Assembly: GCA_050287605.1 (NCBI GenBank)
Contig: JBNKCG010000018.1
Location: forward strand, 43,291-107,290
From: Gammaproteobacteria bacterium
GTDB lineage: Bacteria; Pseudomonadota; Gammaproteobacteria; QQUJ01
Direction: 5' to 3'
DNA length: 64,000 bases
The position numbers and the translations under genes are program-made. Under the pieces are notes generated by a model. It had not been told where the DNA came from, did no database searches, and saw only the letters and a program-made list of their open reading frames with translations. Shown one piece after another: positions 2,156-44,017 of this stretch; positions within the stretch are counted from its first letter, which is position 1, and each line of letters starts with the position of its first letter.

Positions 2156-4141
2156 TCACTGAATCACACGAAACGCTTCTGCCTCGATAAACACCTTGAC
2201 CAACCGCTGATCGATCTTTCCGGCCGCCACCTCTTTGTGGAGAATATCCAACGCCTGGTCTTCCGGCAGGCCCCGTTTGTAGGGCCGATCGCCCGCAGTC
2301 AGCGCATCGTAGATGTCCGCAACGGTCATGATCTTTGACTGCAGCGGAATCTCATCGGTGCCCAACCCCAACGGGTAACCAGAGCCATCGAGTTTTTCGT
2401 GATGCGCATAGGCGATGCTCGCCACGTTTTGCAGCGTCCCGCTCCACGGAATCAAACTGAGGAACGCATAGGTGTGGCTGACGTGGGATTCGATCTGCAG
2501 ACGCTCGTCGGGGCTGAGACTCCCCTGCGCGGCGGTGAGATCGGAGAACTCGAAATCCTCGAGGATGGGCGCATCGCCGCCATCCTCAACGGGGAACGTG
2601 TACGAAAGCAGTTCGCTGAGTTCCGTAGGCACCTCCCGACGCGATACCGTGGGTTCGTTGCTCTTCACCACCAACTGCAGAAAATGGTCAAGGCGATCGC
2701 GCTCTTTGACCAACGCGTCTTCCGTGGCCCGGCGCATCTCGAGCAGCTCTTTCGGGCTCAGCGACCCTTGCTCGTGCAGCTGAATCAGTTTCTTGTACGC
2801 GCGTCGTTCCAAGCTCGCCCGCGCATAGGCAAACCGCTGTTTGATCAGCGTGAGCTGGTGCGGATAGAGCTTCTTCGGCTTGGTCAAAACATGCTCGCGA
2901 ACGCCAACCTTGCCGAAATCGTGCAACAGGGCTGCGTAGCGCAGCTCGCGCATCTGATCGGGGGAGAACTGCACCTGCTTCAGACCGTGACCCGATGCTC
3001 GGTCCACCGCCGCCGCCAAGCGCTCGGTGTATTCGGCGACTCGGAACGAGTGTCCCGCCGTGACGGGATCTCGTGCTTCAATGGCCTGAACGGAGGCCCG
3101 AATGAAGCTCTCGAACAGCTCCTCGATATCCGAATACAATTGCGCATTGCGCACGGCTATCCCCGCCTGCGCGCAGATCCCGGTCAGGATCTCCAGATCG
3201 GCCTGTTCAAACGCCTTGGGATCGGTGGTGCTGTCGACCTGAATCAGGCCGAGAACCTCGTCGCCCACCAATAACGGCGCGCACATCATGCTGCGCAGCG
3301 ACAGGTTGATGATCGAATCGCGAGCCCCGAAGCGCTCATCGCCCATGGCGTCCACCGACAGAATGGCCTGTTTGTGCGCTACCACCTGCTCGACGATAGT
3401 GCTCGAAATGGCGATCTCACTGTCATGCTCTCCCGCTGCCCCCCGGGTCTTCTGGGCGACGGGTATCAGCTGCTCTTTATCCCGCGAACGTAACAGCACA
3501 AACGCGCGCTCGGCCCCGGGAAATATGTCAAAGATGTAATCCAGCATCTTTTGCATCAGCGAGTCGCGGTCGTCCAACGCCCCCAGCGCCACACTGACCT
3601 GAGCCAGCGCCTGCAACCGGCGCAAGGCCACCGCCAGCGACTCATCGGCATGCTGATCAAGGGAGAAGCGGGCAAGGACACTCTTCGAAGCATCGAGCAT
3701 CACGCTCATCTGCCCCGGTGTACGGTCTTCGACCTTCAGCTCGGGATGGGAACTTTCGGAGTGGCGGCTGAACACCCCGCCCTTCGATCGCCCGGTCGTG
3801 GTCAGACCAACGCCAATGTGGGAGGTGTCCTTGATGTCTTCTCGGTAAACCAGCAAGGTCGACGAAATACGAATCTCGTCACCATCGTTCAGGGTATGCA
3901 CGCGGTTGGCGTCCAGGAGCGAACCATTGAGCAGGGTGCCGTTGGTAGACCCCAAATCTTCAAGGACATATCCCTTATTATTTGAGCGGATATGCGCGTG
4001 GCGCCGGCTCACCTGACCGTCGGGAAGCGGCAAAAATATGCGGGGATCGATCCCTTCCGGCGATCTTCCCAAATAGACCTCATCCGCGAGTTTAAAGACC
4101 CGCCCCGTATCGTGGCCTTCGCGGATTTGCAGGGTAGCCAT
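2156..4141 (-). CDS. FHA-GAF-HD-GYP multidomain c-di-GMP phosphodiesterase
   Basis: N-terminal FHA (GRSPEGIDPRIFLPLPDGQVSRRHAHI...GSTNGTLLNG); central GAF; C-terminal HD-GYP (HHEKLDGSGYPLGL). Confidence 0.85.
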   Translation of the reverse strand: MATLQIREGHDTGRVFKLADEVYLGRSPEGIDPRIFLPLPDGQVSRRHAHIRSNNKGYVLEDLGSTNGTLLNGSLLDANRVHTLNDGDEIRISSTLLVYREDIKDTSHIGVGLTTTGRSKGGVFSRHSESSHPELKVEDRTPGQMSVMLDASKSVLARFSLDQHADESLAVALRRLQALAQVSVALGALDDRDSLMQKMLDYIFDIFPGAERAFVLLRSRDKEQLIPVAQKTRGAAGEHDSEIAISSTIVEQVVAHKQAILSVDAMGDERFGARDSIINLSLRSMMCAPLLVGDEVLGLIQVDSTTDPKAFEQADLEILTGICAQAGIAVRNAQLYSDIEELFESFIRASVQAIEARDPVTAGHSFRVAEYTERLAAAVDRASGHGLKQVQFSPDQMRELRYAALLHDFGKVGVREHVLTKPKKLYPHQLTLIKQRFAYARASLERRAYKKLIQLHEQGSLSPKELLEMRRATEDALVKERDRLDHFLQLVVKSNEPTVSRREVPTELSELLSYTFPVEDGGDAPILEDFEFSDLTAAQGSLSPDERLQIESHVSHTYAFLSLIPWSGTLQNVASIAYAHHEKLDGSGYPLGLGTDEIPLQSKIMTVADIYDALTAGDRPYKRGLPEDQALDILHKEVAAGKIDQRLVKVFIEAEAFRVIQ

Positions 4142-4538
4142 GATCCTTACTCAAACCCCTTGCTCGTCAACCTCAACTATTACAACATCAACTGCGCGCA
4201 AGTTACCATAAATATTGGTTAAGTTCCCCAGTCATTCCGTTTGAATCTTGACGGTATCAGTCTGGTCGGGCAATCACACACTATGTTAGAGTAACGGCCA
4301 TAAACCCGCGCAGGAACGAGGTGTTAGGTGCGCCGTCGGGTAAATCACCAATGGTGCAGATGGAATTCGACCAGATCAACTGCCCCGCACCCTCCACCCC
4401 GCAACAAAAAGCGGAATCGCGCAACCGTCTGAGGCCCTGCTCGCCGTTGACAATCCAGGGTATTCTTAAACCGAATTAATGTTAACCGGGCGGGAGTCTG
4501 CGTCTTCCTGCCGACAGGGATTTGTGGGGAAAACCACT

Positions 4539-5006
4539 ATGGGGTCCGACAACCTGATCGTTCCGAAGCAACTGAGCCAGGTGACACTATGGGTTCATCC
4601 CGAAGGGATTGTCGAGGGGGCACTGTTCGTCAGTATCGAACACGACCCCACCAACCCCGAGGATCCTGAGGAGGTGCTCAACTACTCCTCCCCCTTTATC
4701 GTCGTTCGTCGCCAAGACCCCAGCGAGCTGCGGTTTTACAACAAAAGCTCCATCGTGCGCGTCCACTACAGCGCCGACGAGCCGGACTCCGCTGCCACTG
4801 CGCGCCTGCGGTGCACCTTTCACATGATGGACGGCAGCCTGCTGCGAGGCGAGATCCGGCGCAGCCTACCGCCTGATCGTTCACGATTCTATGACTTCCT
4901 CAACCTGGAACAAGAGCGCTTTGCGAAAATCCACCTCGACGATGGCCAAGTGTGTCTGGTGAACAAATCCTACATCGTATGCGGTCTTGATGAGAGCGCG
5001 CGCTGA
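4539..5006 (+). CDS. hypothetical protein, first gene of the kinase/PilT operon
   Basis: ORF with GGGGAAAA ribosome-binding-like sequence before ATG 4539 (track ORF starts 4479); 58 bp upstream of the kinase gene; no confident domain call. Confidence 0.5.
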   Translation: MGSDNLIVPKQLSQVTLWVHPEGIVEGALFVSIEHDPTNPEDPEEVLNYSSPFIVVRRQDPSELRFYNKSSIVRVHYSADEPDSAATARLRCTFHMMDGSLLRGEIRRSLPPDRSRFYDFLNLEQERFAKIHLDDGQVCLVNKSYIVCGLDESAR

Positions 5007-5063: not shown

Positions 5064-7514
5064 ATGGGAATTCTGGACGGAATCCGCATCAACAAAGCGG
5101 TCGCGACCATCGTCAAGGCCAAGAGCGCCGCGACACCTGAGGTTGCCGACGCCATTTTCCAACTGAAGCAGGTCGGCGAAGGCGCCGCCGAAAAGCTCAT
5201 CGATGCCCTCGGTCGTACCCGCACCCCTGGCACCGTGGTGGCCGTACTGGGCACGTTTCTCGACAATTCCACACTGCACCACTTCGCCAACGCCCTGAGC
5301 AGCAAGGACACCACTGTCGTCGACGGTGTCGCCAAAGTTCTCAGCGCTGGCAAGCGCTACGACCCCAACCTGCTGCTGGACGTCTACGCCGACCCCACCA
5401 GCCCCAAAGGATTGCTCTCGCGCATCCTGCTCGCCCAGCGCGAGCGATTGAACATCCGATCGCTGTTACGACTGATGGGTCGCATTCCGCCCGAAGCACG
5501 CAGCGGCGTATTCCGCATGATGGAGGAGATCGCCAGCCCGGAGAATGTCAACGATCTCATCGGTTTCGTCGACAGCGAAGACCCGGTGATCCGCCTGCAC
5601 ACCGCGCGCGTCCTGCGACGCTTCAGTACCGAAGCCGTTCGCGACGCACTGATGAAACTGCTGGGCGACCAGGCCAAGGCCGTGCGGTTGGAGGCGCTGA
5701 CGGGGCTAGGTGACATGAGCATACCGGTGGACGTGAAACCCATCTGCAAAATGTTGCGCGACGCGGACATGACTGTGCAGAGCAAGGCCATCGACACAGT
5801 GATACGCATCAACTCGCCCGACTCCGTCCACTACCTGCTGGAGATACTGCAGGACGATTCCGAGTACGTGCGCCGCGCCGCGGTGGAGGTGCTCAACGAG
5901 GTTGGCAACACCAACGCCATCAAGGATCTCATCGGCGCCCTGCGCGACAAGGACTGGTGGGTACGGGTGCGTGCCGCCGACGCATTGGGGAGCATCGGCG
6001 GTCCGCGGGTGGTCGAATCCGTCCTCTCGCTGGTCAAGGACGAAGATGAATTCATCCGCCGTTTCGCCATCGAAATCCTCAACTCCACCAAAGACAGCCG
6101 CGCCAAGAATTATTTGGAGGAGGCACTCAAGGACGAGGATTGGTGGGTGCGCGAACGGGCAGTGGATGCCCTCGCGGCCATCGGCGATTCCTCGGCCGTT
6201 CCGAAACTGGTCGATCTGATGAAACGCGACAATCGTGCCGCTCCCGTCGTGATCAAGGCACTGGCCTCAATGGGCGACAACCGGGCGGTCAAACCCATCA
6301 TGGAGATGCTGCACAACCCCGACACCGGGGTGCGCAAAGAGGCGCTGCGCGCCCTGGCCGTTCTTGCTGATGAGGAAAACGTCGACGAGGTCAGGCGTGC
6401 CGCGCAGGAGCTGTGCAACTCCTCCAACGACGATATCCGGGCGCTCGCCGACACCACCGTCAGCACCTTGATCACCAAGCCGCTGGCGCAACGCAAGAAA
6501 GGCGCCGCCGAGGAACCGGTGCGCACCGGCTCGACCATGCTCCAGGTTCGCTCCATGCTGGGAATGGAGACACCGAGCAATGCCAGCGATGTCACCATCG
6601 TATCCGACGTCACACCGCCGAGCGCCCAATCCACCCCTGCTGCGGCAGGCGCTATCGATGCGGCAAAACTCAAGGCCGGCGAAGTCCTCGCGGACCGCTA
6701 CCGCGTCATCCGACACATCGGGCGCGGCGCTTTTGGCGTGGTGGTGCTGGTGCAGGACATAATGGTCCATGAAGATATCGTCTTGAAGTTCATCACCCCG
6801 CAGCTCACCTCCTCCGAAGACGTCATCAAACGCTTCGTGCTGGAGATGAAATACGCCCGCAAGATCACGCACGAAAACGTCATCCGCATCTACGACTTCG
6901 TCACCTTCGGCAACTCCTACGCGATGTCCATGGAGTACTTCGAGAGCCACTCCCTGGCAGCGGAGCTCAAATCCGGCAAACCGATGACGCTGCAGCGTGG
7001 ACTGCGCATTCTGCGCGACATCTGCTCCGGAATGATCATCACCCATCGCGGCAACCTGGTACACCGCGACCTCAAACCCTCGAACATCCTCATCGACGAC
7101 AACGATCTGGTTAAAATCGTCGATTTCGGTCTCGCGGCCGCGGCGCGTGAAGGCGAGTCCCGGCTGACCAAGACCGGAATCATCCTCGGCACGCCAACCT
7201 ACATGGCACCCGAGCAGGTCAAAGGCGCCAAAGTCGACGCCCGCACCGATGTCTACAGTCTCGGCATCATCATGTACGAGATGTTCACCGGCCGTCCGCC
7301 TTATGTGGCCGACGATCCGATGGGAATCCTGTTTCAGCACATGGAGGGCAAGGCCAAGCCGCCCCGCGAGGTCAATCCCGAGATTCCCGAAGAGCTCGAT
7401 GCTCTGATCCGCAAAGCCATCGCCCGCAAGCCGGACAATCGCTTCGCCAATATGGAAGAATTGCGCCAAGCCGTCGAACTGCTGCTCAAGCAGCTGGGGG
7501 ATGAGGCGTCATGA
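5064..7514 (+). CDS. HEAT-repeat (PBS-lyase type) Ser/Thr protein kinase
   Basis: Repeated DKDWWVRVRAADALGSIG / DEDWWVRERAVDALAAIGD HEAT motifs; C-terminal Hanks kinase (GRGAFGVV, HRDLKPSNILI, DFGLA, GTPTYMAPE). Confidence 0.85.
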   Translation: MGILDGIRINKAVATIVKAKSAATPEVADAIFQLKQVGEGAAEKLIDALGRTRTPGTVVAVLGTFLDNSTLHHFANALSSKDTTVVDGVAKVLSAGKRYDPNLLLDVYADPTSPKGLLSRILLAQRERLNIRSLLRLMGRIPPEARSGVFRMMEEIASPENVNDLIGFVDSEDPVIRLHTARVLRRFSTEAVRDALMKLLGDQAKAVRLEALTGLGDMSIPVDVKPICKMLRDADMTVQSKAIDTVIRINSPDSVHYLLEILQDDSEYVRRAAVEVLNEVGNTNAIKDLIGALRDKDWWVRVRAADALGSIGGPRVVESVLSLVKDEDEFIRRFAIEILNSTKDSRAKNYLEEALKDEDWWVRERAVDALAAIGDSSAVPKLVDLMKRDNRAAPVVIKALASMGDNRAVKPIMEMLHNPDTGVRKEALRALAVLADEENVDEVRRAAQELCNSSNDDIRALADTTVSTLITKPLAQRKKGAAEEPVRTGSTMLQVRSMLGMETPSNASDVTIVSDVTPPSAQSTPAAAGAIDAAKLKAGEVLADRYRVIRHIGRGAFGVVVLVQDIMVHEDIVLKFITPQLTSSEDVIKRFVLEMKYARKITHENVIRIYDFVTFGNSYAMSMEYFESHSLAAELKSGKPMTLQRGLRILRDICSGMIITHRGNLVHRDLKPSNILIDDNDLVKIVDFGLAAAAREGESRLTKTGIILGTPTYMAPEQVKGAKVDARTDVYSLGIIMYEMFTGRPPYVADDPMGILFQHMEGKAKPPREVNPEIPEELDALIRKAIARKPDNRFANMEELRQAVELLLKQLGDEAS

Positions 7515-8608
7515 CGGCGCGCATCGACGCCTTTCTGCAACTGGGTCGGGAACAGGGTTGTTCCGACATACACCTAGCGGTCGGCACCCCCCCTATCCTG
7601 CGCCTTCACGGAGAGCTGACGCCGGTACGCTACCGGGATCTCGACATCGATGAACTGGAGCGGCTCGTCGACGAAATCCTCAACGACGAACAACGCACCC
7701 ATTTCAACAGCGGCGGCGATCTCGATCTCTCTTATGAGAGCGAGTCGGCTGGACGATTTCGCGTCAACCTGTTTCGTAAAATGGGAGGACTGGGCGCCAG
7801 CTTTCGCGTCATTCCCGCAGATATCCCAACGCTCGACAGCCTCAATCTGCCGCCTGTCGTAGAAAAGTTCACCGAATTGCACCAGGGTTTGGTGCTGGTT
7901 ACCGGAGCGACGGGAACGGGCAAGACCACCACCCTCTCGGCGCTGATCCACCACATCAATCAACGTCGCAAACTCAACATCATCACGCTCGAAGACCCTA
8001 TTGAATTCGTACATCAGAGCGCCGAATCGTTGATCGTGCAGCGTGAAGTCGGTGTGCACGTGCCCAGTTTCGCCGAGGGCCTGAGAGCGGCATTGCGCGA
8101 AGACCCCGACATTATCCTGGTAGGCGAGCTGCGCGACCTGGAGACGGTGAATCTGGCCATGGTGGCAGCGGAAACCGGGCACTTGGTGCTCGGCACGCTG
8201 CATACCACAACGGCAACCAAGACCCTTGATCGCATCATCGACGCCCTGCCCGTCGAGCAAAAACTTCAAGGTATGACGTCGTTGTCGCAAAACTTGCGCG
8301 CCGTCATCAGCCAATCCCTGGTGCGCACCCCCGACGGGCGTGGTCGCAAGGCCATCTGCGAGATCATGGTCATGACCCAGGCGATCTCCCATCTGCTGAT
8401 GAGCGGCAAGGTGTTTCAGATTCCCAGTAAGCTGCAAACCGGGCGCGATCGCGGCATGCAACTACTCGATCAGGCGCTATTGGAGGCGGTGCAAGCGAAA
8501 GAGATCGACCCGGACGACGCCTACCGCCACGCGGTGGACAAGAAGCAGTTCCAGCGCTTCGTCACCGATCCCAGCCTGCTACCCACGGTGAGTTTGGTTG
8601 GACAATAG
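7511..8608 (+). CDS. PilT-family hexameric ATPase, divergent paralogue
   Basis: PilT-like N-domain; Walker A GATGTGKTTT (canonical PilT has GPTGSGKSTT); ATGA overlap with the kinase stop. Confidence 0.85.
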   Translation: MTARIDAFLQLGREQGCSDIHLAVGTPPILRLHGELTPVRYRDLDIDELERLVDEILNDEQRTHFNSGGDLDLSYESESAGRFRVNLFRKMGGLGASFRVIPADIPTLDSLNLPPVVEKFTELHQGLVLVTGATGTGKTTTLSALIHHINQRRKLNIITLEDPIEFVHQSAESLIVQREVGVHVPSFAEGLRAALREDPDIILVGELRDLETVNLAMVAAETGHLVLGTLHTTTATKTLDRIIDALPVEQKLQGMTSLSQNLRAVISQSLVRTPDGRGRKAICEIMVMTQAISHLLMSGKVFQIPSKLQTGRDRGMQLLDQALLEAVQAKEIDPDDAYRHAVDKKQFQRFVTDPSLLPTVSLVGQ

Positions 8609-9728
8609 CGGCAGCATGGAAACCCCCGACGCCACCCCCTCCACCACCAGCGCTGCGATTCAGCATCGCATCGACTCCTTTCTCGAGCTGGTGGTGAAGC
8701 AAGGGGGATCGGATCTCCACCTGGTCTCCGGCAATCCGCCTCGCATTCGGCTGTTCGGCGAAGTGCTAAGCATCAAATATCGGTCTCTATCCCCCGACGA
8801 GACCCTGGACCTGCTCTACGAGATCATGCCGCCCATGGCGAAACGCACCTTCGAGAGCGTACACGGGGTCGACTTTGCCTACGAGATACCCGGCATGTCG
8901 CGCTTTCGCGTCAACGCCTTTCGCCACCTCGGCGGCATCGGTGCGGTGTTTCGCGTGATTCCCAGCAAAGTCCCCAGCCTCGACTCCATGCATCTGCCAC
9001 CCATCTGCCGCACGCTGTGCGAACAACGTAAAGGTCTGGTGCTGGTCACCGGCCCCACCGGATCGGGTAAATCAACCACCTTGGCGGCGATGGTGGATCA
9101 CATCAACGAAATGCGTAAAGCGCATATCATCACCATCGAAGACCCCATCGAATATCTGCACGACCGCAAGAACTGCCTGATCAGTCAACGCGAAGTGGGC
9201 ATCCATACCGAGAGCTTCGCCGCCGCACTACGCTCGGCGGTTCGCGAAGATCCCAACGTGCTGCTGGTGGGCGAGATGCGCGACTTGGAAACCATTCATC
9301 TCGCCGCAACGGCTGCAGAGACCGGCATCCTGGTAATGGGGACACTGCACACTAACGGTGCAGCCGCCGCAGTGGACCGCATGATCAACGTCTTCGCCGC
9401 CAAAGAGCAGGCGCTGATCCGTACCATCCTGTCAACGTCGTTGGTGGGCGTCTTGTCCCAGCAACTGGTAAGACGCGCCGATGGGCGGGGTCGCGTTGCA
9501 GCCATCGAAGTGATGCTGAACACCGCCGCCGCCTCCAATATGATTCGCGAAGGGAAAACCGAGCAACTCGCTAACGTTATCCAAGGCGGCGGGCTACTGG
9601 GTATGCAGAGCATGGACACGGCACTGCGGCGACTGCTGGACGCTAAACAGATATCGGGCACCGAGGCCTACATGAAGGCCAACAACAAAGCGGATTTTGC
9701 GCAGTACTGCGAAGACCCGCTGGAATAG
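8598..9728 (+). CDS. PilT/PilU-family twitching-motility-type ATPase
   Basis: GPTGSGKSTT Walker A; IITIEDPIEY; C-terminal ASNMIREGK...GMQSMD matches the PilT AIRNLIRE motif; overlaps the upstream gene by 11 nt. Confidence 0.85.
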   Translation: MDNSGSMETPDATPSTTSAAIQHRIDSFLELVVKQGGSDLHLVSGNPPRIRLFGEVLSIKYRSLSPDETLDLLYEIMPPMAKRTFESVHGVDFAYEIPGMSRFRVNAFRHLGGIGAVFRVIPSKVPSLDSMHLPPICRTLCEQRKGLVLVTGPTGSGKSTTLAAMVDHINEMRKAHIITIEDPIEYLHDRKNCLISQREVGIHTESFAAALRSAVREDPNVLLVGEMRDLETIHLAATAAETGILVMGTLHTNGAAAAVDRMINVFAAKEQALIRTILSTSLVGVLSQQLVRRADGRGRVAAIEVMLNTAAASNMIREGKTEQLANVIQGGGLLGMQSMDTALRRLLDAKQISGTEAYMKANNKADFAQYCEDPLE

Positions 9729-9836
9729 CCATTCCCCGTTTTTACGTTGCCAGATGCGTTTTTTTGCAGATAATGGTCCGACGGGATTGAATTTCTGCAT
9801 TTGACGAATACCCGACTGCTGCGGGAGTAGAATTGC

Positions 9837-10511
9837 ATGGCCAAGCTGGTGATGACCCTGGACGGAGCGGTCATTAAAGAGATCAAGATCGACCGGGAGA
9901 CGTTGAGCATCGGACGCCGTCCCGGCAACGACGTGCAGCTCAACGATCTGGCCGTCAGCGGCCGCCACGCGCTGTTTAGCGCGATGCACAACACCTACAT
10001 CGAAGACCTGGGCAGCACCAACGGCACGCTGGTCAACGGCAAAAAGGTCAAAAAGGCCATCGTCAAACACGGCGACGTAATCCAGATCGGGGGGCACCAA
10101 TTCACCTACCTCACCAAGGAAGAGATGCCCTACGAACCCACCATGTTCCTCAAGGCCGAATTCGAGCCCACCATGACGTTGGATACCGACTCCGGGCAAC
10201 GGCAGGTGACGGCCGACCCGCGGGAAGAGGGAAGGCTGGGTGCGGTCAAGATCCTCAGCGGCCCCATGAAAGGGAAAGTGCTGGAGCTGCGCAAACCCTT
10301 CAATACCGTCGGCATCAACGGCGTCAAAGTGGCACTGATCTCACGCGAGAGTACCGGCTATACCATCCATGGCATCAAGAGCCGCAAGTTGCGTCGCGCC
10401 TCGGACCTGCCGACGGTCAACGGCGAACCGGTGGGTGATAGCAGCGTCCGCCTCCAAGAGAAGGACGTCATCGAAATGGTGGACACCAAGATGCAGTTCT
10501 ACTTCATGTAG
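9837..10511 (+). CDS. FHA-domain protein, possibly with a second degenerate FHA-like domain
   Basis: LSIGRRPGNDVQLNDLAVSGRHALF...GSTNGTLVNGKKV FHA signature; C-terminal half repeats a similar pattern (TVGINGVKV...VNGEPV). Confidence 0.8.
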   Translation: MAKLVMTLDGAVIKEIKIDRETLSIGRRPGNDVQLNDLAVSGRHALFSAMHNTYIEDLGSTNGTLVNGKKVKKAIVKHGDVIQIGGHQFTYLTKEEMPYEPTMFLKAEFEPTMTLDTDSGQRQVTADPREEGRLGAVKILSGPMKGKVLELRKPFNTVGINGVKVALISRESTGYTIHGIKSRKLRRASDLPTVNGEPVGDSSVRLQEKDVIEMVDTKMQFYFM

Positions 10512-23572: not shown

Positions 23573-25600
23573 GTGATATTGAGTCACAGGTGGAGGGGAT
23601 CTGTGCGGAGAGTGGACGCTAACCTCGGCAAGCCGGCCTTGGCACGATGTGGACCGGGCGCGCTGTTGGGATTATTGCTGATCCAAGCCGGCGTTTCGGC
23701 TCACGCCGAGAACATCGACTTACCGGTCTCGGGAGAAGACGTCTACTTCGGGGAACTGCCCATTGTGCTATCCGCGACACGGCTCAACCAGCCGATCGCC
23801 GAGGCACCGGTGGCCGTCACCGTTATTGACCGGGAAATGATCGAAGCCTCGGGTGCGCGCGAACTGGCCGATGTGTTTCGCCTGGTGCCGGGATTCTTGG
23901 TAGGGTCTTTTGACGGTCACCAGCGTTCCGTCGGCTATCACGGATTGCTCGACAGCTTCAACCGCCGCATGCAGGTGTTGGTGGACGGACGGTCGGTCTA
24001 TACCCCCACCTTCGGTGGCGTCCGCTGGAGCGATCTGCCGCTGGCGCTCGAAGATATCGAACGCATCGAAGTGGTGCGTGGACCCAATGCAGCCACCTAC
24101 GGTCCCAACTCCTTCATGGGCATCGTGAGTATCACGACGCGCCACGCCGCCGACACGCCGGGAACGCTGGTGAAGGCCGCCGCGGGTGACCCGGACTATG
24201 GCTCCGTCCTGGTGCGCAACGGGACTAATTTCGGCGACCTTGATCTACGGGTTACGATTCAGACAGATCGCGACACCGGATTTCCCGGCGTCGAAGACAC
24301 CAAACAGACCGATCGCCTCAATGTACGGGCCGACTATCAAGCCACCGCGCGGGATAACTTCGTGCTCAACACCGGGTACAGCGCTGGACCTCGCCGCGAA
24401 GGCGAAGCCACCGACACCAATCCCACGCGCAATATCGACGCCGAAAGCTATTACGTCCAAGGCCATTGGCGTCGAACACTTAGTCCCAACGAAGAGATCA
24501 GCATCCAGTTCTATCGCAACAGTTTCAAATCCGAGGATACGTTTTTTGCCACCAGCGGCCCACTTTCCGGCGAAATCGATTTCGGCCGCGAAGGCCGACG
24601 CACCGACATCGAACTGGAACACACCCTGATTCCCAGTGATACGGTGAAGATTGCTTGGGGTGCGGAGTTGCGGCGAGATCAGGGGCTGTCAAATAATATG
24701 TTCATCGGAGGCGATTACGCCAACGATGTCAAACGCCTGTTCGGCAACGTGGTGTGGGAGTTCGTACCCGGCACCATACTCAACACCGGTGCAATGATCG
24801 AGAAAAACGACCTGACCGGAACCGATATCTCTCCTCGCATTGCCCTGAACCATCGCATCAATTCAAACCACAGCGTGCGGATAACCGCTAGCCACGCTAC
24901 CCGAACACCCTCCCTCTTCGAAGGCGCCGTCGATTTCTACCACATCCTCGATTTTGGCGGCACCCCGGTGATACTGCAGAACTACCTGACCACCGACCGG
25001 CTCAAACCCGAACAAATCGATTCCATTGAGTTCGGGTACATCTTCGACCTTCCACGAAAAGGCGTTAACGGAGATATAAAACTATTCCGCGAACGTATTC
25101 GCGACCTTATCTCGGACGACACGTTCACGCTGATCACTAGTCATGGCTTACCCAACATAGGTGGTGAATCCTCTACCTTTGGCAACGTCGACAGCGCCAC
25201 GATAGACGGCGTCGAGGCGCAAATCGAGTGGCGTCCCGACAGTCGGAATCGAATCATCGCGGGAGGCGCTCTTCTTCACGCCGAAAGCGACAACATCGCC
25301 GAGGAGTATTCCAAGACTGTTCCCTCAGCCATTGTCAATTTATTGTGGATTCATCGCTCCCTGACCGGCCTGTCGACTGGGGTTTCGTACTACTACACCG
25401 ACGAGTGTCGATACCTAGGAGGAGATCAAATCGATGCCGTCAGCCGGCTGGATTTTCGAGTCTCCCAAAAGTTCGGCCCCCGCAACAATGCCGGCGAAAT
25501 CGCGTTTGTCTTTCAAAATATTTTCGGAAATTACTCGGATTTCTCCGAGACAAACACCATGGACCAGCGTGCTTACGTTAGCTTGAGCACACAGTATTAG
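23573..25600 (+). CDS. TonB-dependent outer-membrane receptor
   Basis: Signal peptide, plug domain (EAPVAVTVIDREMIEASGARELADVFRLVPG), long beta-barrel with C-terminal aromatic residue. Confidence 0.8.
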   Translation: MILSHRWRGSVRRVDANLGKPALARCGPGALLGLLLIQAGVSAHAENIDLPVSGEDVYFGELPIVLSATRLNQPIAEAPVAVTVIDREMIEASGARELADVFRLVPGFLVGSFDGHQRSVGYHGLLDSFNRRMQVLVDGRSVYTPTFGGVRWSDLPLALEDIERIEVVRGPNAATYGPNSFMGIVSITTRHAADTPGTLVKAAAGDPDYGSVLVRNGTNFGDLDLRVTIQTDRDTGFPGVEDTKQTDRLNVRADYQATARDNFVLNTGYSAGPRREGEATDTNPTRNIDAESYYVQGHWRRTLSPNEEISIQFYRNSFKSEDTFFATSGPLSGEIDFGREGRRTDIELEHTLIPSDTVKIAWGAELRRDQGLSNNMFIGGDYANDVKRLFGNVVWEFVPGTILNTGAMIEKNDLTGTDISPRIALNHRINSNHSVRITASHATRTPSLFEGAVDFYHILDFGGTPVILQNYLTTDRLKPEQIDSIEFGYIFDLPRKGVNGDIKLFRERIRDLISDDTFTLITSHGLPNIGGESSTFGNVDSATIDGVEAQIEWRPDSRNRIIAGGALLHAESDNIAEEYSKTVPSAIVNLLWIHRSLTGLSTGVSYYYTDECRYLGGDQIDAVSRLDFRVSQKFGPRNNAGEIAFVFQNIFGNYSDFSETNTMDQRAYVSLSTQY

Positions 25601-25627
25601 CGGCACCCATCAATTTGCAAAATCGCG

Positions 25628-26605
25628 ATGTGGTTACGGATGCACAGCCGAGTTTTCATAGAGTTGTTACAACCGCGAGGTCGCCGACTTGCGACAAGCG
25701 TTGTCTTGTTCATTCTTGTGTTTCCAGTTTCTTTCTCCGTCTTCGCCGACACCACGAAAATAGGGATTCTCTATTCTGAGCACTCTGCTGCACAGAGTGA
25801 AGTGGTACACGAGATTGAGCGGATATTGCAGCAATCGCTGGTCAATAGCATTTCAGTGACGACGATCAAAATCGAAAGCAGCACCGTCGACTCACTATTG
25901 AAAGCACCGCGGGATCTTATTATTACTGTTGGCCTAGAAGCTGCACTGCTCTGCCGCGACCGATGCAAAGCAACCTCACTACTGCGAGCACTAATTCCGA
26001 AACGCACTGCCGAATCGGTCCTCCTCAACAATGCAGACGTGCGGGTATATGACATCTATCTCGACCAACCCGTCCCTCGCCTCATGCGACTACTGAAACT
26101 CGCCCTCCCCTACGACAACAACGTTGCGGTGCTTTTGGGTCCCTCTTCGTCATCGCTGGAGAGTGATTTGGGGCGAGCGGGAAAAAACCATGGCCTAACC
26201 TTGCATATTGAAAAAGTCTCCGACCAATCGGAACTGATCACTGCGCTCGAACGTTTGCTCAAGCAGAGCCAAGTCCTGCTCGCCGTGCCGGATCCTCTAA
26301 TATACAACCGGTTTACGGTTCAGAAGATATTGTTAACTACCTACCGGCACCAGATTCCCGTCGTATCATTTTCCGCCGCCCTGGTCCGCGCCGGCGCTTC
26401 AATAGCAGTATATTCATCGCCCGATCAAATAGGGCGGCATATCGGCGAAATCGCCGTCCGCATCGTGGGAAAACAGAATCCACCCCAATCGAGCTTTCCG
26501 TTGTATTACTCCGTCACCACCAACCACCAAGTTGCCCGTTCGCTCGGCCTCAATCTACCTGCCGATGAGTCATTGCTGGACATGCTGTTGGCACACGAAA
26601 GGTAG
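25628..26605 (+). CDS. periplasmic binding protein (ABC_sub_bind-like) partnered with the downstream hybrid kinase
   Basis: Signal peptide/TM then ~300-aa periplasmic-binding-like fold; 7-bp gap to the kinase gene. Confidence 0.55.
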   Translation: MWLRMHSRVFIELLQPRGRRLATSVVLFILVFPVSFSVFADTTKIGILYSEHSAAQSEVVHEIERILQQSLVNSISVTTIKIESSTVDSLLKAPRDLIITVGLEAALLCRDRCKATSLLRALIPKRTAESVLLNNADVRVYDIYLDQPVPRLMRLLKLALPYDNNVAVLLGPSSSSLESDLGRAGKNHGLTLHIEKVSDQSELITALERLLKQSQVLLAVPDPLIYNRFTVQKILLTTYRHQIPVVSFSAALVRAGASIAVYSSPDQIGRHIGEIAVRIVGKQNPPQSSFPLYYSVTTNHQVARSLGLNLPADESLLDMLLAHER

Positions 26606-26611
26606 GCCGCA

Positions 26612-29600
26612 GTGAGCCTGGGTATCCGCAGACGCGTACTCCTTGTCGCCCTGGTGCCGGCGCTGGTAATTTCGTTGTTCATGCTGAGCTATTTCGTTGC
26701 CAGCAGGCTTGATGCCGCAGAAGAAAATCTAAAAGACCGCGGACAGAGTTTCGCACATCAGCTCGCGTCGATGAGTGAATACGCCGTATTTTCCGGCAAT
26801 CTCGCGTATCTTAGATTTCCAGGCGTAAGCGTTCAAATCAACGAAGATCCTGATATTCGAGCCGCAATCATCCGTGACGCAAGCGGATTGGTTTTGATGA
26901 CGTATGGCGAGACCACCGCCCACCTTGGAGAGGTGCGACTGGTCGAATCAAACGGGACACCGACCAAAACCGACTACGGGACCATATTGATCAATCAACC
27001 CATAGAGTTGACTTCTGTAGTGGTCAACGATTTTGAAGAAGACTCATCCGCATCCAATAGTGGCAAAAAACCCTCTTCTCCCCAACTCGGGTGGGTGACG
27101 GTTGAAATGTCACTGGACGCCTTACGCGCAGAACAACGCCAAATCGTTGCACGAGCCATCGCGTTCCTTCTCGGTGGATTGTTGTTGAGCGCATGGGTCG
27201 CTCACCGAATGAGTCGTGGAGTGGTCGACCCAATACTCTCTCTAACAAACGCAGTTCGCAGTATCGAGGCGGGCGATTTAACAACTCGCGTTCCGCTGAG
27301 CGCTGAGGGTGAGCTACTGGAGCTGGAATCCGGCATCAATCGTATGACGTCGTCGTTACAAACGGCTCAGGAGCGTTTGCAGGAGCAGGTGCAAAACGCC
27401 ACCGAAGGGCTGCGCAACTCGTTAGAAGCGCTCGCGGTACAGGAGTCGCGGTACCGCGAGCTAGTACAGAACGCGAACAGTTTCATCATGAAGCTGGACC
27501 CTGAAGGACGAATCTTATACGTCAACCCTTATGCTGAAACGTATCTCGGTATCTCCTCCGAACACCTATTGGGCAGAGACGTGATCGGGACGGTATTTCC
27601 CGTTCAAGCAACTGCATCGATTTCCGCCATGGTACGTGACCCCGACAATGTAATGATCCCCGACGACATCACCATAGCGAAGGACCGTCGCCGTGTGTAC
27701 GTGAGTTGGTCCAATCGCCCGGTTCTCGATATCGATGGAAAACTCGTAGATATTATCTGCATCGGTCACGACATTACCGAACGTCGCACCATCGAAATCG
27801 CTATGGAGCTGCTCGCTTCCGCCGGAGGCGCGGAGAATACCGTATTCGATGATATCGCCCGAGCAACCCAGGTCGGTCTCGATTCCGTCGCCGCGTACGT
27901 TGTTTCCATAAATACTGAAACGGAAGTGTCACTGCTCGGTTTTTGGCATCGTGATCTCCAGTCCCGCATTGATATTGCCGACTCCGGGTTGGCCGATATT
28001 CTCCAGTATGCGCTACACGAAGGAATCCGACGTCTCGAGTTAGCCCGACTGGGACGAAAAGATCTAGACCGCTTCTTCACCGCAAGCGATGCGACGTCAC
28101 TGATACTGGAGCGTGTTGCGGAATCACCCGACACCGAAGATGTCTGGTTAATTGCCACTGACAAAATTCCCCTCGTTCTTGCGCCCGCGCGACAGGCATT
28201 CTTGCATTTGGTGTCACGGCGCACCGGCATCGAAATCCATCGCATTTATGCCGAACGTGAACTATCCGATGCGCGCGATCAAGCGCTGATGGCCTCCAGG
28301 GTAAAAAGTGAGTTTCTCGCCAACATGAGCCACGAAATACGTACTCCTATGAACGGAATCGTGGGATTTACCAATCTCTTGCTGCGCAGCCGGCTCACCC
28401 GCGAGCAACACAACTACGTTTCAACAGTGAGAAAGTCCGCCCACAGTCTGCTAGCGATTATCAACGACGTACTCGATCTCTCGAAGATCGAATCAGGGAA
28501 ACTGAAAATAGACGAAACCCCCTTCGATCTTCGCGAATGCGTTGAGGACGCCATATCCCTTCTGGCTCCCTCGGCATCCGAAAAAGGCCTAGAGTTGGTA
28601 ACGCTGATTTATGCCGACGTGCCTTGTCAACTCATCGGCGATCCAATACGGATTCGTCAAGTGCTCATCAACCTAGTTGGCAATGCGGTCAAATTTACGA
28701 ACCAAGGTACAGTCGCGATTCGAGTCATGCTCGAGGAGCGCAGCGGCGACGAGGTCACATTGGAGCTACGAGTAACCGACACGGGCATCGGGCTGAGTAC
28801 CGAGGACCAACACAGACTGTTCACGGCGTTCACCCAAGCAGATACCTCTGAAACCCGTCGATTTGGGGGAACCGGTCTAGGATTGGCCATTTCGAAGAAA
28901 TTGATTGAACAGATGAATGGCGAAGTCGGGTTGGAAAGCGAACTCGGTGCAGGCTCAAGTTTTTGGTTCAAATTACCCCTTAAGTGTGACACCGAGATCG
29001 ACCCCAAGATTCCCACCCGACCAAACCCACTTGCGGGGATGCGCTCCCTCTTGTTCGACAGCCAAGATCTTTCCCGCCTTGCACTACGCCACACTCTCGA
29101 GTCTTTCGGATTATTGGTCGACGAGGCGTCCAATTTTGACCAGGCAATCGGTTTGATCAATCGATCCGCAGAGTCACGCCTCCACTATGACGCGGCAGTT
29201 GTGGGACTAACGCGTGCTCAAATGGGAGGCGATGACTGTCGTTCGTTCTATCGGCACGTGGATCAAATCTCACATACACCTGTCATTGTTTTATCCGGCG
29301 CAATGGCTCATGAAGAGATAAGCGAACAATGCGAGGAGTGCGTCTCGTTGTGCTTATCGAAACCCGTACGAACCGATCAACTCTATTTTCGCTTATGTGA
29401 CTTGTTAAGCGACACCAACGATCAATCGGTATCTCTTTCCTTCCGACACGACACCATTGCACACCCCGCCGTTGACGAGCTTCGTTTTTCCGGTCGTAGA
29501 GTACTGGTGGTCGAAGACAACCTGATCAACGCGCGACTGCTCACCATTCTGTTGCGCGACGCTGGAATCGTAGCCCACCATGTGACAACGGGATTTCAGG

Positions 29601-30268
29601 CCGTGGATCTCGCGCAACGCCAATCGTTCGATCTCATTTTGATGGATATACACATGCCAGAAATGAGCGGTTTACAGGCCGCAGAACAGATTCGCGCGAA
29701 TGAGCCACCCGGATCACACGTCCCTATTGTCGCGTTGACCGCCAACGCTCAACCACGCGAGCGCGAGCGCGCACTGAACGCAGGTATGGACGAGTTTATC
29801 TCGAAGCCCATAGACGAGAAGCTGCTTTGGAATATTTTCGAAAGTCTGCTTTCTCCTGGGACTCAGCATCCGCTGGATAGACAGACTACAGATCATGCCG
29901 ATTCATCACTTCCTACGCGAGACATCTCTGCAGCGATCCGCACAAGCGGGGGGAACAACCAACTATCCGAAGAACTATTTGAGATGTTACTGCGTCAACT
30001 CCCCGAACACATGCGGGCGATTCAGCAAATGTACGACAAGCGTCTGTGGCTGGAGTTACGGGAAGAGGTACATAAACTTCGCGGATCCGCCGCCTATTGC
30101 GCGTTACCCGGCCTCCTGAAGGCAACTCAGTCTTTTGAGGAGGCGCTTGCCACTAGTCCCGACGACACCGACTACACTGACATGGTTGCTCAAGTCTTTC
30201 ACGAAATCGATCGATTGCTGGTTGGTCGCCACTCAAAAAATGCTACCGGAAACGCTCGTCCAACCTAA
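26612..30268 (+). CDS. hybrid sensor histidine kinase (TM-HAMP-PAS-HisKA-HATPase, degenerate REC, REC, Hpt)
   Basis: H-box FLANMSHEIRTPMNGI; N/G boxes LVGNAVKFT, DTGIGL, GGTGLGLAI; receiver RVLVVEDNLINA...DLILMDIHMP; C-terminal Hpt HKLRGSAAY. Confidence 0.9.
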   Translation: MSLGIRRRVLLVALVPALVISLFMLSYFVASRLDAAEENLKDRGQSFAHQLASMSEYAVFSGNLAYLRFPGVSVQINEDPDIRAAIIRDASGLVLMTYGETTAHLGEVRLVESNGTPTKTDYGTILINQPIELTSVVVNDFEEDSSASNSGKKPSSPQLGWVTVEMSLDALRAEQRQIVARAIAFLLGGLLLSAWVAHRMSRGVVDPILSLTNAVRSIEAGDLTTRVPLSAEGELLELESGINRMTSSLQTAQERLQEQVQNATEGLRNSLEALAVQESRYRELVQNANSFIMKLDPEGRILYVNPYAETYLGISSEHLLGRDVIGTVFPVQATASISAMVRDPDNVMIPDDITIAKDRRRVYVSWSNRPVLDIDGKLVDIICIGHDITERRTIEIAMELLASAGGAENTVFDDIARATQVGLDSVAAYVVSINTETEVSLLGFWHRDLQSRIDIADSGLADILQYALHEGIRRLELARLGRKDLDRFFTASDATSLILERVAESPDTEDVWLIATDKIPLVLAPARQAFLHLVSRRTGIEIHRIYAERELSDARDQALMASRVKSEFLANMSHEIRTPMNGIVGFTNLLLRSRLTREQHNYVSTVRKSAHSLLAIINDVLDLSKIESGKLKIDETPFDLRECVEDAISLLAPSASEKGLELVTLIYADVPCQLIGDPIRIRQVLINLVGNAVKFTNQGTVAIRVMLEERSGDEVTLELRVTDTGIGLSTEDQHRLFTAFTQADTSETRRFGGTGLGLAISKKLIEQMNGEVGLESELGAGSSFWFKLPLKCDTEIDPKIPTRPNPLAGMRSLLFDSQDLSRLALRHTLESFGLLVDEASNFDQAIGLINRSAESRLHYDAAVVGLTRAQMGGDDCRSFYRHVDQISHTPVIVLSGAMAHEEISEQCEECVSLCLSKPVRTDQLYFRLCDLLSDTNDQSVSLSFRHDTIAHPAVDELRFSGRRVLVVEDNLINARLLTILLRDAGIVAHHVTTGFQAVDLAQRQSFDLILMDIHMPEMSGLQAAEQIRANEPPGSHVPIVALTANAQPRERERALNAGMDEFISKPIDEKLLWNIFESLLSPGTQHPLDRQTTDHADSSLPTRDISAAIRTSGGNNQLSEELFEMLLRQLPEHMRAIQQMYDKRLWLELREEVHKLRGSAAYCALPGLLKATQSFEEALATSPDDTDYTDMVAQVFHEIDRLLVGRHSKNATGNARPT

Positions 30269-30288
30269 TCGCTTCAGTACACAACACC

Positions 30289-30669
30289 TCAAGCATGCTC
30301 CAGCACGACAAAACCTAGTGCGTATTCTTTTTCATCTGCCAAGCTCAACCAAGCGCTGGTAACCCCCTTTTTCAAACTAACATCCAGCGCGCGGCCCTTC
30401 AAAACAAGCAAGGGTTGCCCGGCCCCATCATGCGTAACGACAATGTCGCATTTCCTCACACCCTGACCGAATCCCGTACCCAAGGCTTTTGCCGCAGCCT
30501 CTTTAGCCGCAAACCGTTTTGCCAAAAAGGCTACGGAACGTCCGGTATTTTTGTAGTCCTCCAGTTCCTGCTCCGCGAGTATGCGCGCAGCCAGGCGATC
30601 TCCATGTCGTGCGACGATTCTTTCCATTCGCGGGACCGATACCACATCCACCCCTATCCCTACGATCAC
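30289..30669 (-). CDS. acpS: holo-[acyl-carrier-protein] synthase
   Basis: [10 protein letters not shown] start and AcpS fold; GTG start directly after the pdxJ stop (pdxJ-acpS order as in E. coli). Confidence 0.8.
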
Positions 30670-31424
30670 GTTCTCCTGGCCTCCTGCATCAGCTGTTTCA
30701 TCTCGCGCACCGCCCTCGCCAGCCCGACAAACAGTGCCCGACAAATGATTGAGTGACCAATATTGAGCTCATGAATTGCCGGCAGCCTAGCAATGGATTT
30801 CACATTGTGATAGTTGAGGCCATGTCCGGCATTGACGACGAGGTTTAGGCTATGTGCGTACGCTACCGCCTCTGCAATACGCTGGTATTCTTTCTCTACC
30901 TCGCGGGGATCTTTCGCGTCGGCATAGGCACCTGTGTGTATCTCTACTACCGGAGCGCCGACAGCAGCCGCAGCATCGATTTGAGCGGGGTCGGGATCGA
31001 CAAACAGTGAAACGCAAACTCCCGCGTTCCGCAACCGTGTCGTCGCCGCCTGAACACGATCACGATTTCCCGCGACATTCAATCCCCCTTCCGTGGTTAA
31101 CTCCCGCCGTTTTTCTGGGACCAAACAACAGTGCTCCGGCTTGATATCGCATGCGATGGAGAGCATCTCCTCGTGCACGGCCAGTTCCAGATTCATTCGG
31201 GTCTGCAGAGTATCGCGCAACAGAACAACATCGCGTTCCTGGATGTGGCGGCGATCTTCTCGCAAATGAATTGTTATGCCATCGGCTCCCGCAAGTTCTG
31301 CCTCAAACGCGGCCTGCACGGGATCAGGGTACCGTGTTCCCCGCGCCTGCCGCAAAGTCGCCACATGATCGATATTGACCCCCAGCGCTATCTGATGATC
31401 ACTGCCCCCGATACTGTCGTTCAT
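30666..31424 (-). CDS. pdxJ: pyridoxine 5'-phosphate synthase
   Basis: [16 protein letters not shown] motif; TIM-barrel length. Confidence 0.9.
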
Positions 31425-31433
31425 GATAAGCTC

Positions 31434-32165
31434 TCACGGATCCACACGATTGTTCGCACCTAAATAGCCACGAACAAGCTCGCGACTCTTGAGCGGTTTA
31501 TCACCCAAATAGCGCTTAAGCGCTCTTTGGAGAAGCCAACGCGCCTCCTTCAGCTGAGATAGACTCATTGGTTGCCCACTGCCCAACGCAATCAAAGTCG
31601 ATCCACTGATCACTCGTTCCCCCGGGCACTCCCCGCTGACCGGTCCTTCTTCCAGTTTGTAACAATACCGTCGATCGGGGTGAATCGTTTCACCCGTGTT
31701 CACATCGTGATCAAGAATCAGTCCGTACCCGATCTCTTCCAGCAACTGCTTTTCGAACATCCTCAGTGCCTGCAACTGCTGGCCGTCCCTACCGACACCG
31801 TCTAATGCGTGCTCGTACGCCGCAAATAGCGTCGGGTGCGGATCGTGACGAATCAGTAGCCGCATCAACAACTCGTTCAGGTAGAACCCGCACGCAAGAT
31901 CGCGGCCCTGCAGTCGGTGAGCCACTCCCCCGCTCTCTGCGCCGATCAACGTACCCAGTTCGTGCCGTTCGATCCACGTCACCTTGAGCGGCATGAAGGG
32001 TTGGATAAGCCCTCTCAGTGATGAACGTGGAGCCCGCACTCCGCGCGCGACCACACCCACTCGACCATGCGAGGCAGTAAAAAACTCGGCAATCAGACTT
32101 GTCTCACGGTATCGCCGCGCATGCAATACGTAAGCTGGTTGCAACTCTATTCGACGTGTTTGCAC
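31434..32165 (-). CDS. recO: DNA repair protein RecO
   Basis: AYVLHARRYRETSLIAEFFTASHGR N-terminal OB fold; conserved recO-era-rnc order. Confidence 0.85.
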   Translation of the reverse strand: MQTRRIELQPAYVLHARRYRETSLIAEFFTASHGRVGVVARGVRAPRSSLRGLIQPFMPLKVTWIERHELGTLIGAESGGVAHRLQGRDLACGFYLNELLMRLLIRHDPHPTLFAAYEHALDGVGRDGQQLQALRMFEKQLLEEIGYGLILDHDVNTGETIHPDRRYCYKLEEGPVSGECPGERVISGSTLIALGSGQPMSLSQLKEARWLLQRALKRYLGDKPLKSRELVRGYLGANNRVDP

Positions 32166-32196
32166 TCATCCCTCGCTGCTGCCTCTCACGAGGCCC

Positions 32197-33102: not shown

Positions 33103-33769
33103 CCAGCTTCTTCAACGCCTCCTGCGCAGCTTGCTGTTCGGCGCGCCTGCGGCTGCTCCCTGATCCCGTTACGGCATCGTCAAGACCAGAGACGCGGCAG
33201 GTAACGACAAACGTCTGCGCATGGGGCTGCCCCTTTACGTCATGGACTTCGTACTCGGGAAGCTCTTTCTGGCGCGCTTGCAGGTATTCCTGAAGTTGTG
33301 TCTTTGGGTCCTTGACTTCAATCAACTCGTCCAGCGCTTCAATTCTTTCTCCTAGCAGCCGGGTTACCAGGGCGATCGCCGCGTCAAATCCAGCATCCAG
33401 ATATACCGCTCCAATAATACTCTCCAGGGCATCGGCCAGAATGGACTCACGCCGAAATCCTCCGCTCTTGAGTTCTCCCGAACCGAGCCTGAGATGATCC
33501 CCAAGATCCAGTTCAAACCCAATTTCCGCCAACGTTTCGCGCCTAACCAAGCGGGCACGGTAGCGGCTCAATTCACCTTCGTCCGCTTGAGGATAAGTAC
33601 GGTAAAGTGCCTCGGCTGTCACCAACCCCAGCACCGCATCACCTAGAAATTCCAGACGCTCGTTATTGCGGCTATCGGCGCTGCGATGCGTCAACGCCTG
33701 CTCCAGCAGGACTGTATCCGAAAACTGCGCGTTCAGCTTGCGCAGCAGTTTCGAATGATCTGCCATCAA
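33083..33769 (-). CDS. rnc: ribonuclease III
   Basis: ERLEFLGDAVLG signature; dsRBD. Confidence 0.95.
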   Translation of the reverse strand: MMADHSKLLRKLNAQFSDTVLLEQALTHRSADSRNNERLEFLGDAVLGLVTAEALYRTYPQADEGELSRYRARLVRRETLAEIGFELDLGDHLRLGSGELKSGGFRRESILADALESIIGAVYLDAGFDAAIALVTRLLGERIEALDELIEVKDPKTQLQEYLQARQKELPEYEVHDVKGQPHAQTFVVTCRVSGLDDAVTGSGSSRRRAEQQAAQEALKKLGVLQGD

Positions 33770-34146: not shown

Positions 34147-34166
34147 CGTCAGTTTCCCCCTTTCAT

Positions 34167-34994: not shown

Positions 34995-35046
34995 GACGGG
35001 CTCTTGTCTTCCTATTACTGATGCGATTCAGAATCGGTCTTACGCA

Positions 35047-43944: not shown

Positions 43945-44017
43945 GCTGTACTCCTCGCTACGGGGTGGAGGGTTTGCAGCCGTTTACCATACTACACCAC
44001 AATTCCTGGTACTTTTG

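Follow-up and report, generated by a model that had tools for sequence, protein, structure and literature searches.

A stretch of 64,000 nt from a gammaproteobacterial genome (assembly GCA_050287605.1, contig JBNKCG010000018.1, positions 43,291 to 107,290 of the forward strand; hereafter the window, within which all coordinates are counted) carries two tandem genes for ATPases of the PilT family, here called ATPase A and ATPase B, next to genes for a Ser/Thr kinase and for proteins predicted to act in phosphothreonine (pThr) and cyclic di-GMP (c-di-GMP) signaling. Between 4.5 and 10.5 kb, five closely spaced genes lie on the + strand, and a sixth is transcribed divergently from them. The features are as follows:

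2156..4141, - strand: FHA-GAF-HD-GYP protein of 661 amino acids (aa), a predicted c-di-GMP phosphodiesterase (Pfam FHA, GAF, HD, and HD_5)
4142..4538: divergent intergenic region of ~400 nt, with presumed promoters for both directions
4539..5006, + strand: protein of 155 aa with two putative tandem Sm/Hfq-like small beta-barrels
5064..7514, + strand: cytoplasmic HEAT-repeat Hanks-type Ser/Thr kinase of 816 aa
7511..8608, + strand: PilT-family ATPase A of 365 aa (TIGR01420)
8616..9728, + strand: PilT-family ATPase B of 370 aa, counted from the ATG at 8616 (TIGR01420)
9837..10511, + strand: FHA protein of 224 aa (Pfam FHA, 5e-22)

The core of this module is formed by four genes, those for the tandem Sm-like protein, the HEAT-repeat Hanks kinase, ATPase A, and ATPase B. 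A consensus scan found no strong sigma-70 site in 4142..4538 and placed a promoter-like site at 9747-9774, upstream of the gene for the 224-aa FHA protein.

Tandem PilT paralogues had been claimed in a first-pass annotation of the window, and both open reading frames (ORFs) on the + strand exceed the curated cut-off of TIGR01420, the PilT/PilU family (319.1 bits). ATPase A scores 426.3 bits across profile positions 2-342 of 343 and ATPase B scores 449.9 bits over its full length; the two are 49% identical. The Walker A motif of A was correctly read as GATGTGKTTT (nt 7904-7933) but is not atypical, as had been proposed. It satisfies the P-loop consensus GxxGxGK[ST] and is of the PilU type (GATGTGKSTS in Pseudomonas aeruginosa PilU, PDB 9n32). 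Among 147 PilT-family sequences that we collected, P-loop positions 2 and 5 often vary, and many PilT paralogues have variants of the form G[ASG][TV]G[TS]GK. The AIRNLIRE-like region of A is indeed divergent and reads AISHLLMSGK (nt 8381-8410; A-family consensus AIaxLixxgk). The Walker A, Asp box, Walker B, and His box of A are intact and, in an alignment, invariant in 21 orthologues. A ends in a family-specific C-terminal tail of ~23 aa, DKKQFQRFVTDPSLLPTVSLVGQ (nt 8537-8605), with the strongly conserved family consensus DKKxFQRFVTDPxLLPxVxLVG.

ATPase B was annotated as canonical, a description that fits its Walker A (GPTGSGKSTT, nt 9051-9080) but not the rest of its motifs. Its AIRNLIRE region (AASNMIREGK, nt 9528-9557) retains N..IRE alone, and its His box (TGILVMGTLHT, nt 9321-9353) has the first His replaced by Ile and the second retained; the Asp box and Walker B are present. 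The position equivalent to His222 of P. aeruginosa PilT (PaPilT) is occupied by a residue other than His in all 16 B-family members seen (15 Ile, 1 Thr). Tandem PilT pairs were also seen in Verrucomicrobiota (loci L033-L061; e.g., L034:1248-3566), where the first gene has a G[SA]VGSGK Walker A, the second has His222 replaced by Leu, as the B family has it replaced, and each gene forms a clade with 100% bootstrap support.

The kinase gene and the gene for A share the ATGA at 7511 that had been reported: the TGA stop at 7512-7514 overlaps the ATG start at 7511-7513. An overlap of 11 nt between A and B, in contrast, hangs on the use of TTG 8598 as a start codon. The most likely start of B is the ATG at 8616, 7 nt after the TAG of A, because its orthologue in locus L004 (92% identical) is without an in-frame start upstream of the equivalent ATG and because B starts 1-20 nt past the A stop, or with a 4-nt overlap, in all relatives. 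The stoichiometric co-expression deduced from the overlaps over-reads what is a signal for translational coupling. The 16 residues at the N-terminus of B form a Thr/Ser/Pro-rich extension, METPDATPSTTSAAIQ (8616-8666), that is shared with the closest relative, L004, but with no other B orthologue. A Thr-rich N-terminal extension of B, METPDATPSTTS, was considered as a conserved phospho-acceptor and rejected, as it too is confined to the window and L004.

By clade, A and B are neither PilT sensu stricto nor PilU. In a neighbor-joining tree of 129 sequences with 200 bootstraps, the A family is a clade with 100% support that has both PilT and PilU outside it, and the B family is a clade with 62% support and a core of 99%. 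The canonical proteobacterial PilT clade, which includes PaPilT, has 100% support and contains neither A nor B. They are likewise outside the PilU clade, composed of P. aeruginosa PilU (PaPilU, 9n32) and the second genes of canonical tandems (100% support for its core, 90% for its broad form), even though A combines a GATGTGK-type Walker A with the absence of AIRNLIRE in the way that PilU does. Identity to PaPilT is 46% for A and 51% for B, compared to 73-80% for canonical gamma- and betaproteobacterial PilT in the same data set, and A is 36% identical to PaPilU. For both ATPases the nearest solved structure is P. aeruginosa PilT (312 and 353 bits for A and B, respectively), with PilU further away (259 and 272 bits). 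One-to-one orthology with P. aeruginosa pilT and pilU, which the first-pass annotation had set against its own proposal of a recruited motor pair, is therefore not what we found, because the clades exclude A and B and their identities fall far below those of canonical PilT.

The ATPase pair is conserved together with the kinase. Neighborhoods were collected by exact look-ups, a scan of GTDB species genomes, and a comparison of all ORFs with six proteins of the window. A-family loci are those encoding an A-type protein that is at least 59% identical; there are 19 in addition to the window, and each count refers to the loci in which the relevant flank exists. They span Gammaproteobacteria, Betaproteobacteria, NC10, Acidobacteriota, Eisenbacteria, and Tectimicrobiota, and orthologues of A at ~70% identity occur in Inmirania thermothiophila (Chromatiales), NC10 (Methylomirabilis), Tectimicrobiota, Zetaproteobacteria, and Betaproteobacteria. 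A HEAT kinase gene is directly upstream of A and a B-type gene is directly downstream in 19 of 19 related loci, and no HEAT kinase adjoins any of ~65 ordinary PilT loci. In 11 of the 16 related loci compared at this junction, the kinase and A genes either overlap or lie no more than 4 nt apart. Pairwise identities of A correlate with those of B (rho of 0.87, 91 pairs), and identities of the kinase vary in step with both. Sequence comparison thus strongly supports a kinase-A-B unit that is conserved and has co-evolved over at least seven phyla or classes. Besides the window, 12 of the 19 related loci encode the 155-aa Sm-like protein.

One lineage of proteobacterial metagenome-assembled genomes (MAGs) is different (L007:4113-5495; also L008-L010 and L013). 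The Sm-like protein is absent, a conserved 460-aa ORF without a Pfam match is immediately upstream of the kinase gene, and the kinase and A genes are separated by gaps of 120-330 nt rather than overlapping.

These patterns bear on two simpler explanations. The first is that the locus is an ordinary pilT-pilU operon that happens to be located beside an unrelated kinase gene. Tandem genes of the PilT family are very common and A has the Walker A of PilU, but A does not group with PilU nor B with PilT, both of which form clades with 100% bootstrap support, and the order of the genes is reversed. Moreover, no A-family locus of any phylum departs from kinase-A-B linkage, the genes mostly overlap or abut, and proteins in which HEAT repeats are fused to a PilT ATPase exist (see below). 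Chance juxtaposition is effectively excluded because of the linkage, the tree, the junctions, and these fusions, and we assign it next to no probability. The second is that A and B are the sole PilT-type ATPases of the organism and constitute a divergent, kinase-regulated housekeeping retraction motor. The 64-kb window has no PilT-family ORFs besides A and B, and the catalytic motifs of the pair are complete or nearly so. However, PilT proteins of Gamma- and Betaproteobacteria form a tight clade (73-80% identical to PaPilT) that is without A and B, and Myxococcus, Geobacter, and Neisseria, which have extra PilT paralogues, retain canonical PilT too. The module is also distributed patchily across phyla with ~70% identity between them, a pattern more in keeping with an accessory unit that moves laterally than with a core motor. 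A sole housekeeping motor is consequently improbable.

The kinase is organized as HEAT repeats (residues ~1-465), a Ser/Thr/Pro-rich linker, and a kinase domain (546-810), with Pfam matches to HEAT_2 (3.6e-54) and Pkinase (6.5e-53). Across 14 orthologues its G-loop, catalytic Lys, HRD, DFG, and APE motifs do not vary, and the protein lacks a membrane segment. The 155-aa protein has no significant Pfam match, only a weak one to DUF6812. Its family has 248 matches in a database clustered at 90% and 724 representatives at 50% clustering, all of them stand-alone proteins of ~150 aa; a distant relative (P0290) is on a contig of 570 bp. The FHA domains of the 224-aa protein and of the phosphodiesterase (Pfam 5e-22 and 9e-16, respectively) have the conserved GR, SxxH, and NG. 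Orthologues of the 224-aa FHA protein are encoded downstream of B in L001, L004, L011, L012, L014, L019, and L088. A linker motif, YEPTMFLKAE (10131-10160), has the family form YEPTMF[LV][KR]AE, is invariant in seven of seven orthologues, and could be a phosphothreonine site (pT, with Leu at +3). The two halves of the FHA protein align weakly (hhalign E of 0.002, probability of 13%), a faint hint that its C-terminal half may be a degenerate second FHA domain. The HD-GYP protein matches HD_5 (1.7e-32) and has intact HD and HD-GYP motifs (LLHDFGK and HHEKLDGSGYP).

The accessory genes differ across lineages but share a theme, which in all loci is pThr signaling or cyclic nucleotides. The FHA-GAF-HD-GYP variant is present in the window, Inmirania, and other Chromatiales, and is encoded at the same position in L001, L004, L019, and L088. 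Its place is taken by an FHA-EAL protein in NC10 and by an FHA-GAF-class III cyclase in Tectimicrobiota. A betaproteobacterial locus has a PP2C phosphatase and a cyclase-FHA protein, a locus in Eisenbacteria has an FHA protein and an HD-GYP-PP2C fusion, and several loci have stand-alone FHA proteins. The fusion in Eisenbacteria (L016:11388-13598) is a single protein encoded just downstream of kinase-A-B, and an arrangement of this kind would tie c-di-GMP hydrolysis directly to Ser/Thr dephosphorylation.

A sister architecture, which is frequent in Myxococcota, places the HEAT repeats on an ATPase. In three loci of the scan (a Holophagae MAG, an unclassified bacterium, and a proteobacterial MAG), HEAT repeats are fused N-terminally to a PilT ATPase, and in all three a second PilT gene follows. 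A search with one of the fusions recovered at least 120 clusters of full-length relatives of ~920-960 aa, with named sources that include Myxococcota, Myxococcaceae, Myxococcales, Bradymonadia, Alphaproteobacteria, and Deltaproteobacteria. Each fusion has a second PilT gene and a Ser/Thr kinase gene after it; the order of genes is PAS-cyclase, HEAT-PilT, PilT, and Ser/Thr kinase in a Myxococcaceae MAG, and HEAT-PilT, PilT, and Ser/Thr kinase in an alphaproteobacterial MAG. The HEAT part of the fusion is 27% identical to the HEAT region of the window kinase over 268 aa (E of 2e-23), with DxDWWVRxR repeats in common. By a Rosetta-stone argument, these fusions suggest a single working unit made up of the HEAT domain, the kinase, and both ATPases.

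The two architectures are alike in combining HEAT repeats, two PilT ATPases, and a Hanks kinase, in the similarity of their HEAT regions, and, in the Myxococcaceae locus, in an adjoining cyclase gene. They are also alike in how motifs are divided between the ATPases: in the sister module the first retains the His box and has a degraded AIRNLIRE, and the second, in which Val, Leu, or Thr stands in place of His222, retains N-IRE. With the pairs of Verrucomicrobiota, changes of motif that are split between two partners seem to recur in tandem PilT paralogues. The sister module differs in that the HEAT repeats are on the first ATPase rather than the kinase, the kinase gene follows those of the ATPases, the Walker A of the first ATPase is canonical, and the Sm-like protein was not seen in the loci examined. 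The proposal in the first-pass annotation, that a retraction-motor pair was recruited into a phospho-signaling operon, is strongly supported in its structural part by the conserved kinase-A-B unit, the context of FHA, PP2C, and cyclic-nucleotide genes, and the fusions.

Myxococcus xanthus offers a possible link from the sister architecture to pili. It has adjacent PilT paralogues, MXAN_6705, with a long N-terminus, and MXAN_6706, whose deletion partly impairs pilus-dependent motility (PMC13584747). If the two are a module of the fused type, then the wider family is tied to pili. Apart from this partial defect in S-motility, for which membership in the family is our inference, the HEAT-PilT modules are uncharacterized.

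Our preferred interpretation, which we advance tentatively and with somewhat less than even confidence, is that A and B are the motor pair of a conserved module that functions as an accessory pilus-retraction motor coupled to pThr and second messengers, and not as the housekeeping PilT and PilU. The HEAT domain would dock the kinase onto the ATPase ring, and the kinase would phosphorylate Thr residues on itself, the ATPases, or the FHA protein. FHA domains would read the pThr marks and recruit or activate the HD-GYP phosphodiesterase, such that the state of the motor and local c-di-GMP are coupled in either direction; in other lineages, synthesis of cyclic nucleotide monophosphates would take this role. 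By analogy, B may engage the pilus platform like PilT and A may act via B like PilU. The output would be a signal-gated accessory retraction motor for type IVa pili.

The roles assigned to the two ATPases draw on work on the canonical pair. PilT touches the platform protein PilC via a surface that includes AIRNLIRE, whereas PilU is without AIRNLIRE, reaches the machine and PilC only via PilT, and binds PilT through a C-terminal extension (bioRxiv 10.1101/2025.10.30.685630). We place B on the platform, and A as acting through B, because B keeps N-IRE and because A has a PilU-type P-loop, no AIRNLIRE, and a conserved tail. An Sm-fold partner of a pilus ATPase has a precedent in cyanobacterial Hfq, which binds PilB (PMC11407516). 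In the cyanobacterial Hfq-EbsA-PilB system, however, the ATPase partner is the extension ATPase PilB, not PilT.

Several observations weigh against an accessory retraction motor. The 64-kb window is devoid of type IV pilus genes, and so are the 7-10 kb around the module in each of the 24 examined loci of cassette or fusion type. A precedes B, which is the reverse of the pilT-pilU order, and the tail of A is unrelated in sequence to the C-terminal extension of PilU. An AlphaFold2 model of A built from an alignment of 21 sequences has a good core, but predicted local distance difference test scores are below 50 at residues 300-365, the tail included. The substitution in the His box of B may reduce or alter its ATPase activity. 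MXAN_6705 and MXAN_6706 are probably a fused-type module, as judged from their description and not from sequence. Lastly, the deep branching among A, B, and the fused-type ATPases has neighbor-joining bootstraps below 30%, so a single origin of both architectures is not proven.

Some of these observations would be expected if the pair has no role in pili and is instead the mechanochemical core of a cytoplasmic signaling complex. In such a complex, the ATPases would be an ATP-driven switch or remodeler acting on the kinase, an FHA protein, or another substrate, and the output would be second-messenger turnover. Pilus genes are absent near the module in every locus examined, and every conserved neighbor is a signaling protein. 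A is without AIRNLIRE, the motif of the PilT-PilC interface, and the corresponding motif and the His box of B are altered. Outside cyanobacteria, no known pilus machine has anything that corresponds to the Sm-like partner or the HEAT scaffold. On the other hand, A and B are well above the threshold for type IVa PilT/PilU over their full length, and the AxxN[LIM]IRE of B is within the range of the PilT family (AVANLIREGK, AISNLIREGK). Canonical pilT-pilU operons are usually far from other pil genes, so the missing linkage says little. Further, MXAN_6706 affects pilus-dependent motility, which counts against a non-pilus role if it is a member of the sister module. On balance a non-pilus role is fairly plausible but less likely than the accessory retraction motor.

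A broader reading is that the module represents a new class of bacterial signal transduction, in which a PilT-type motor pair is the sensor or effector of a eukaryote-like pThr circuit and the two architectures are variants of one ancient system that crosses phyla. For example, a HEAT-docked kinase might read the load or nucleotide state of the retraction motor, and FHA-fused HD-GYP, EAL, or cyclase enzymes might convert motor state to changes in c-di-GMP or cyclic AMP (cAMP). We regard this reading as less likely than not.

Comparisons with better-known systems help place the module. Like PilT-PilU of P. aeruginosa, Vibrio cholerae, and Acinetobacter baylyi, it has two adjacent hexameric ATPases of the PilT family. 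A resembles PilU in its GATGTGK P-loop, absence of AIRNLIRE, and, perhaps, in carrying a C-terminal extension, and B resembles PilT in its GPTGSGK and in keeping at least the N-IRE core. Unlike PilT and PilU, A and B are outside the canonical clades and in reversed order, the tail of A is unrelated, His222 is replaced by Ile in B, and the pair comes in fixed linkage with genes for a HEAT kinase, an Sm-like protein, and FHA proteins or second-messenger enzymes. We know of no pilT-pilU operon with a linkage to genes for a HEAT kinase, Sm-like protein, and FHA protein. The PpkA-PppA-Fha1 pathway controls the H1 type VI secretion system (T6SS) of P. aeruginosa by threonine phosphorylation. It also has a Hanks kinase, a PP2C phosphatase (as in some variants of the module), and an FHA reader, and the machine that it gates includes a hexameric ATPase. 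The two differ in machine, ATPase family, and kinase architecture, since the T6SS kinase is a membrane receptor and the module kinase is cytoplasmic with HEAT repeats, and the T6SS pathway is not known to include second-messenger enzymes.

A full-text search of the literature turned up no account of the module, HEAT-PilT fusions, or DUF6812, which is no proof of novelty. The parts are all from known families; the fixed combination and its breadth appear to be new. Databases label these proteins merely as "twitching motility protein PilT", and the module offers an explanation for a large set of entries with this label. It also suggests what the extra PilT paralogues of Myxococcus may belong to. 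The regulation of pilus retraction, and its sensing for surface responses through cAMP and c-di-GMP, are open questions that have been studied almost only via the chemosensory-type Pil-Chp and the PilZ/FimX pathways. The module is a genetically tractable candidate for a second, phosphorylation-based route that would extend from Gammaproteobacteria to NC10 and Acidobacteriota and, in its fused form, to Myxococcota. Were the motor pair a signaling device, it would connect pilus retraction to second messengers by a direct mechanochemical route.

The surroundings of the module are relevant to one further alternative, an anti-phage or conflict system assembled from a kinase and ATPases. A kinase plus an NTPase is a familiar theme in defense, and the kinase domain matches the PADLOC models PD-T4-6, mad6, and PglW. 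These matches nevertheless cover the generic kinase domain alone, those of the ATPases are at most 28 bits and in P-loop regions, and the Sm-like and FHA proteins have no meaningful matches. No gene for a nuclease or other effector is present, and no A-family copies (at least 60% identity) were found on PLSDB plasmids. Rather than being in a variable island, the module is in conserved housekeeping synteny: the surrounding genes (cysG, serS, crcB, rarA, lolA, and ftsK) are common to Inmirania and other Chromatiales. A defense function is therefore very improbable. The remainder of the window is also gammaproteobacterial housekeeping, with cysG, serS, ftsK, era, recO, pdxJ, lepA, degP, and rseB, and further nadB, sdhA, lysS, recJ, thrC, and hom.

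Two other features of the window lie outside the module. A 518-aa ORF on the + strand (43943-45499), flanked by nadB-like and sdhA-like genes, matches nothing in Pfam at an E of 1e-5; it could be a gene that was left unannotated or a spurious ORF in high-GC sequence. In 24000-36000, G+C content drops from ~0.61-0.65 to 0.53-0.55 over ~12 kb. This stretch encodes a TonB-dependent receptor, an ABC-type binding protein, and a hybrid histidine kinase of 1218 aa (sCache-HAMP-PAS-HisKA-REC-Hpt), and it is not simply an island because the housekeeping genes pdxJ, recO, era, and lepA are inside it.

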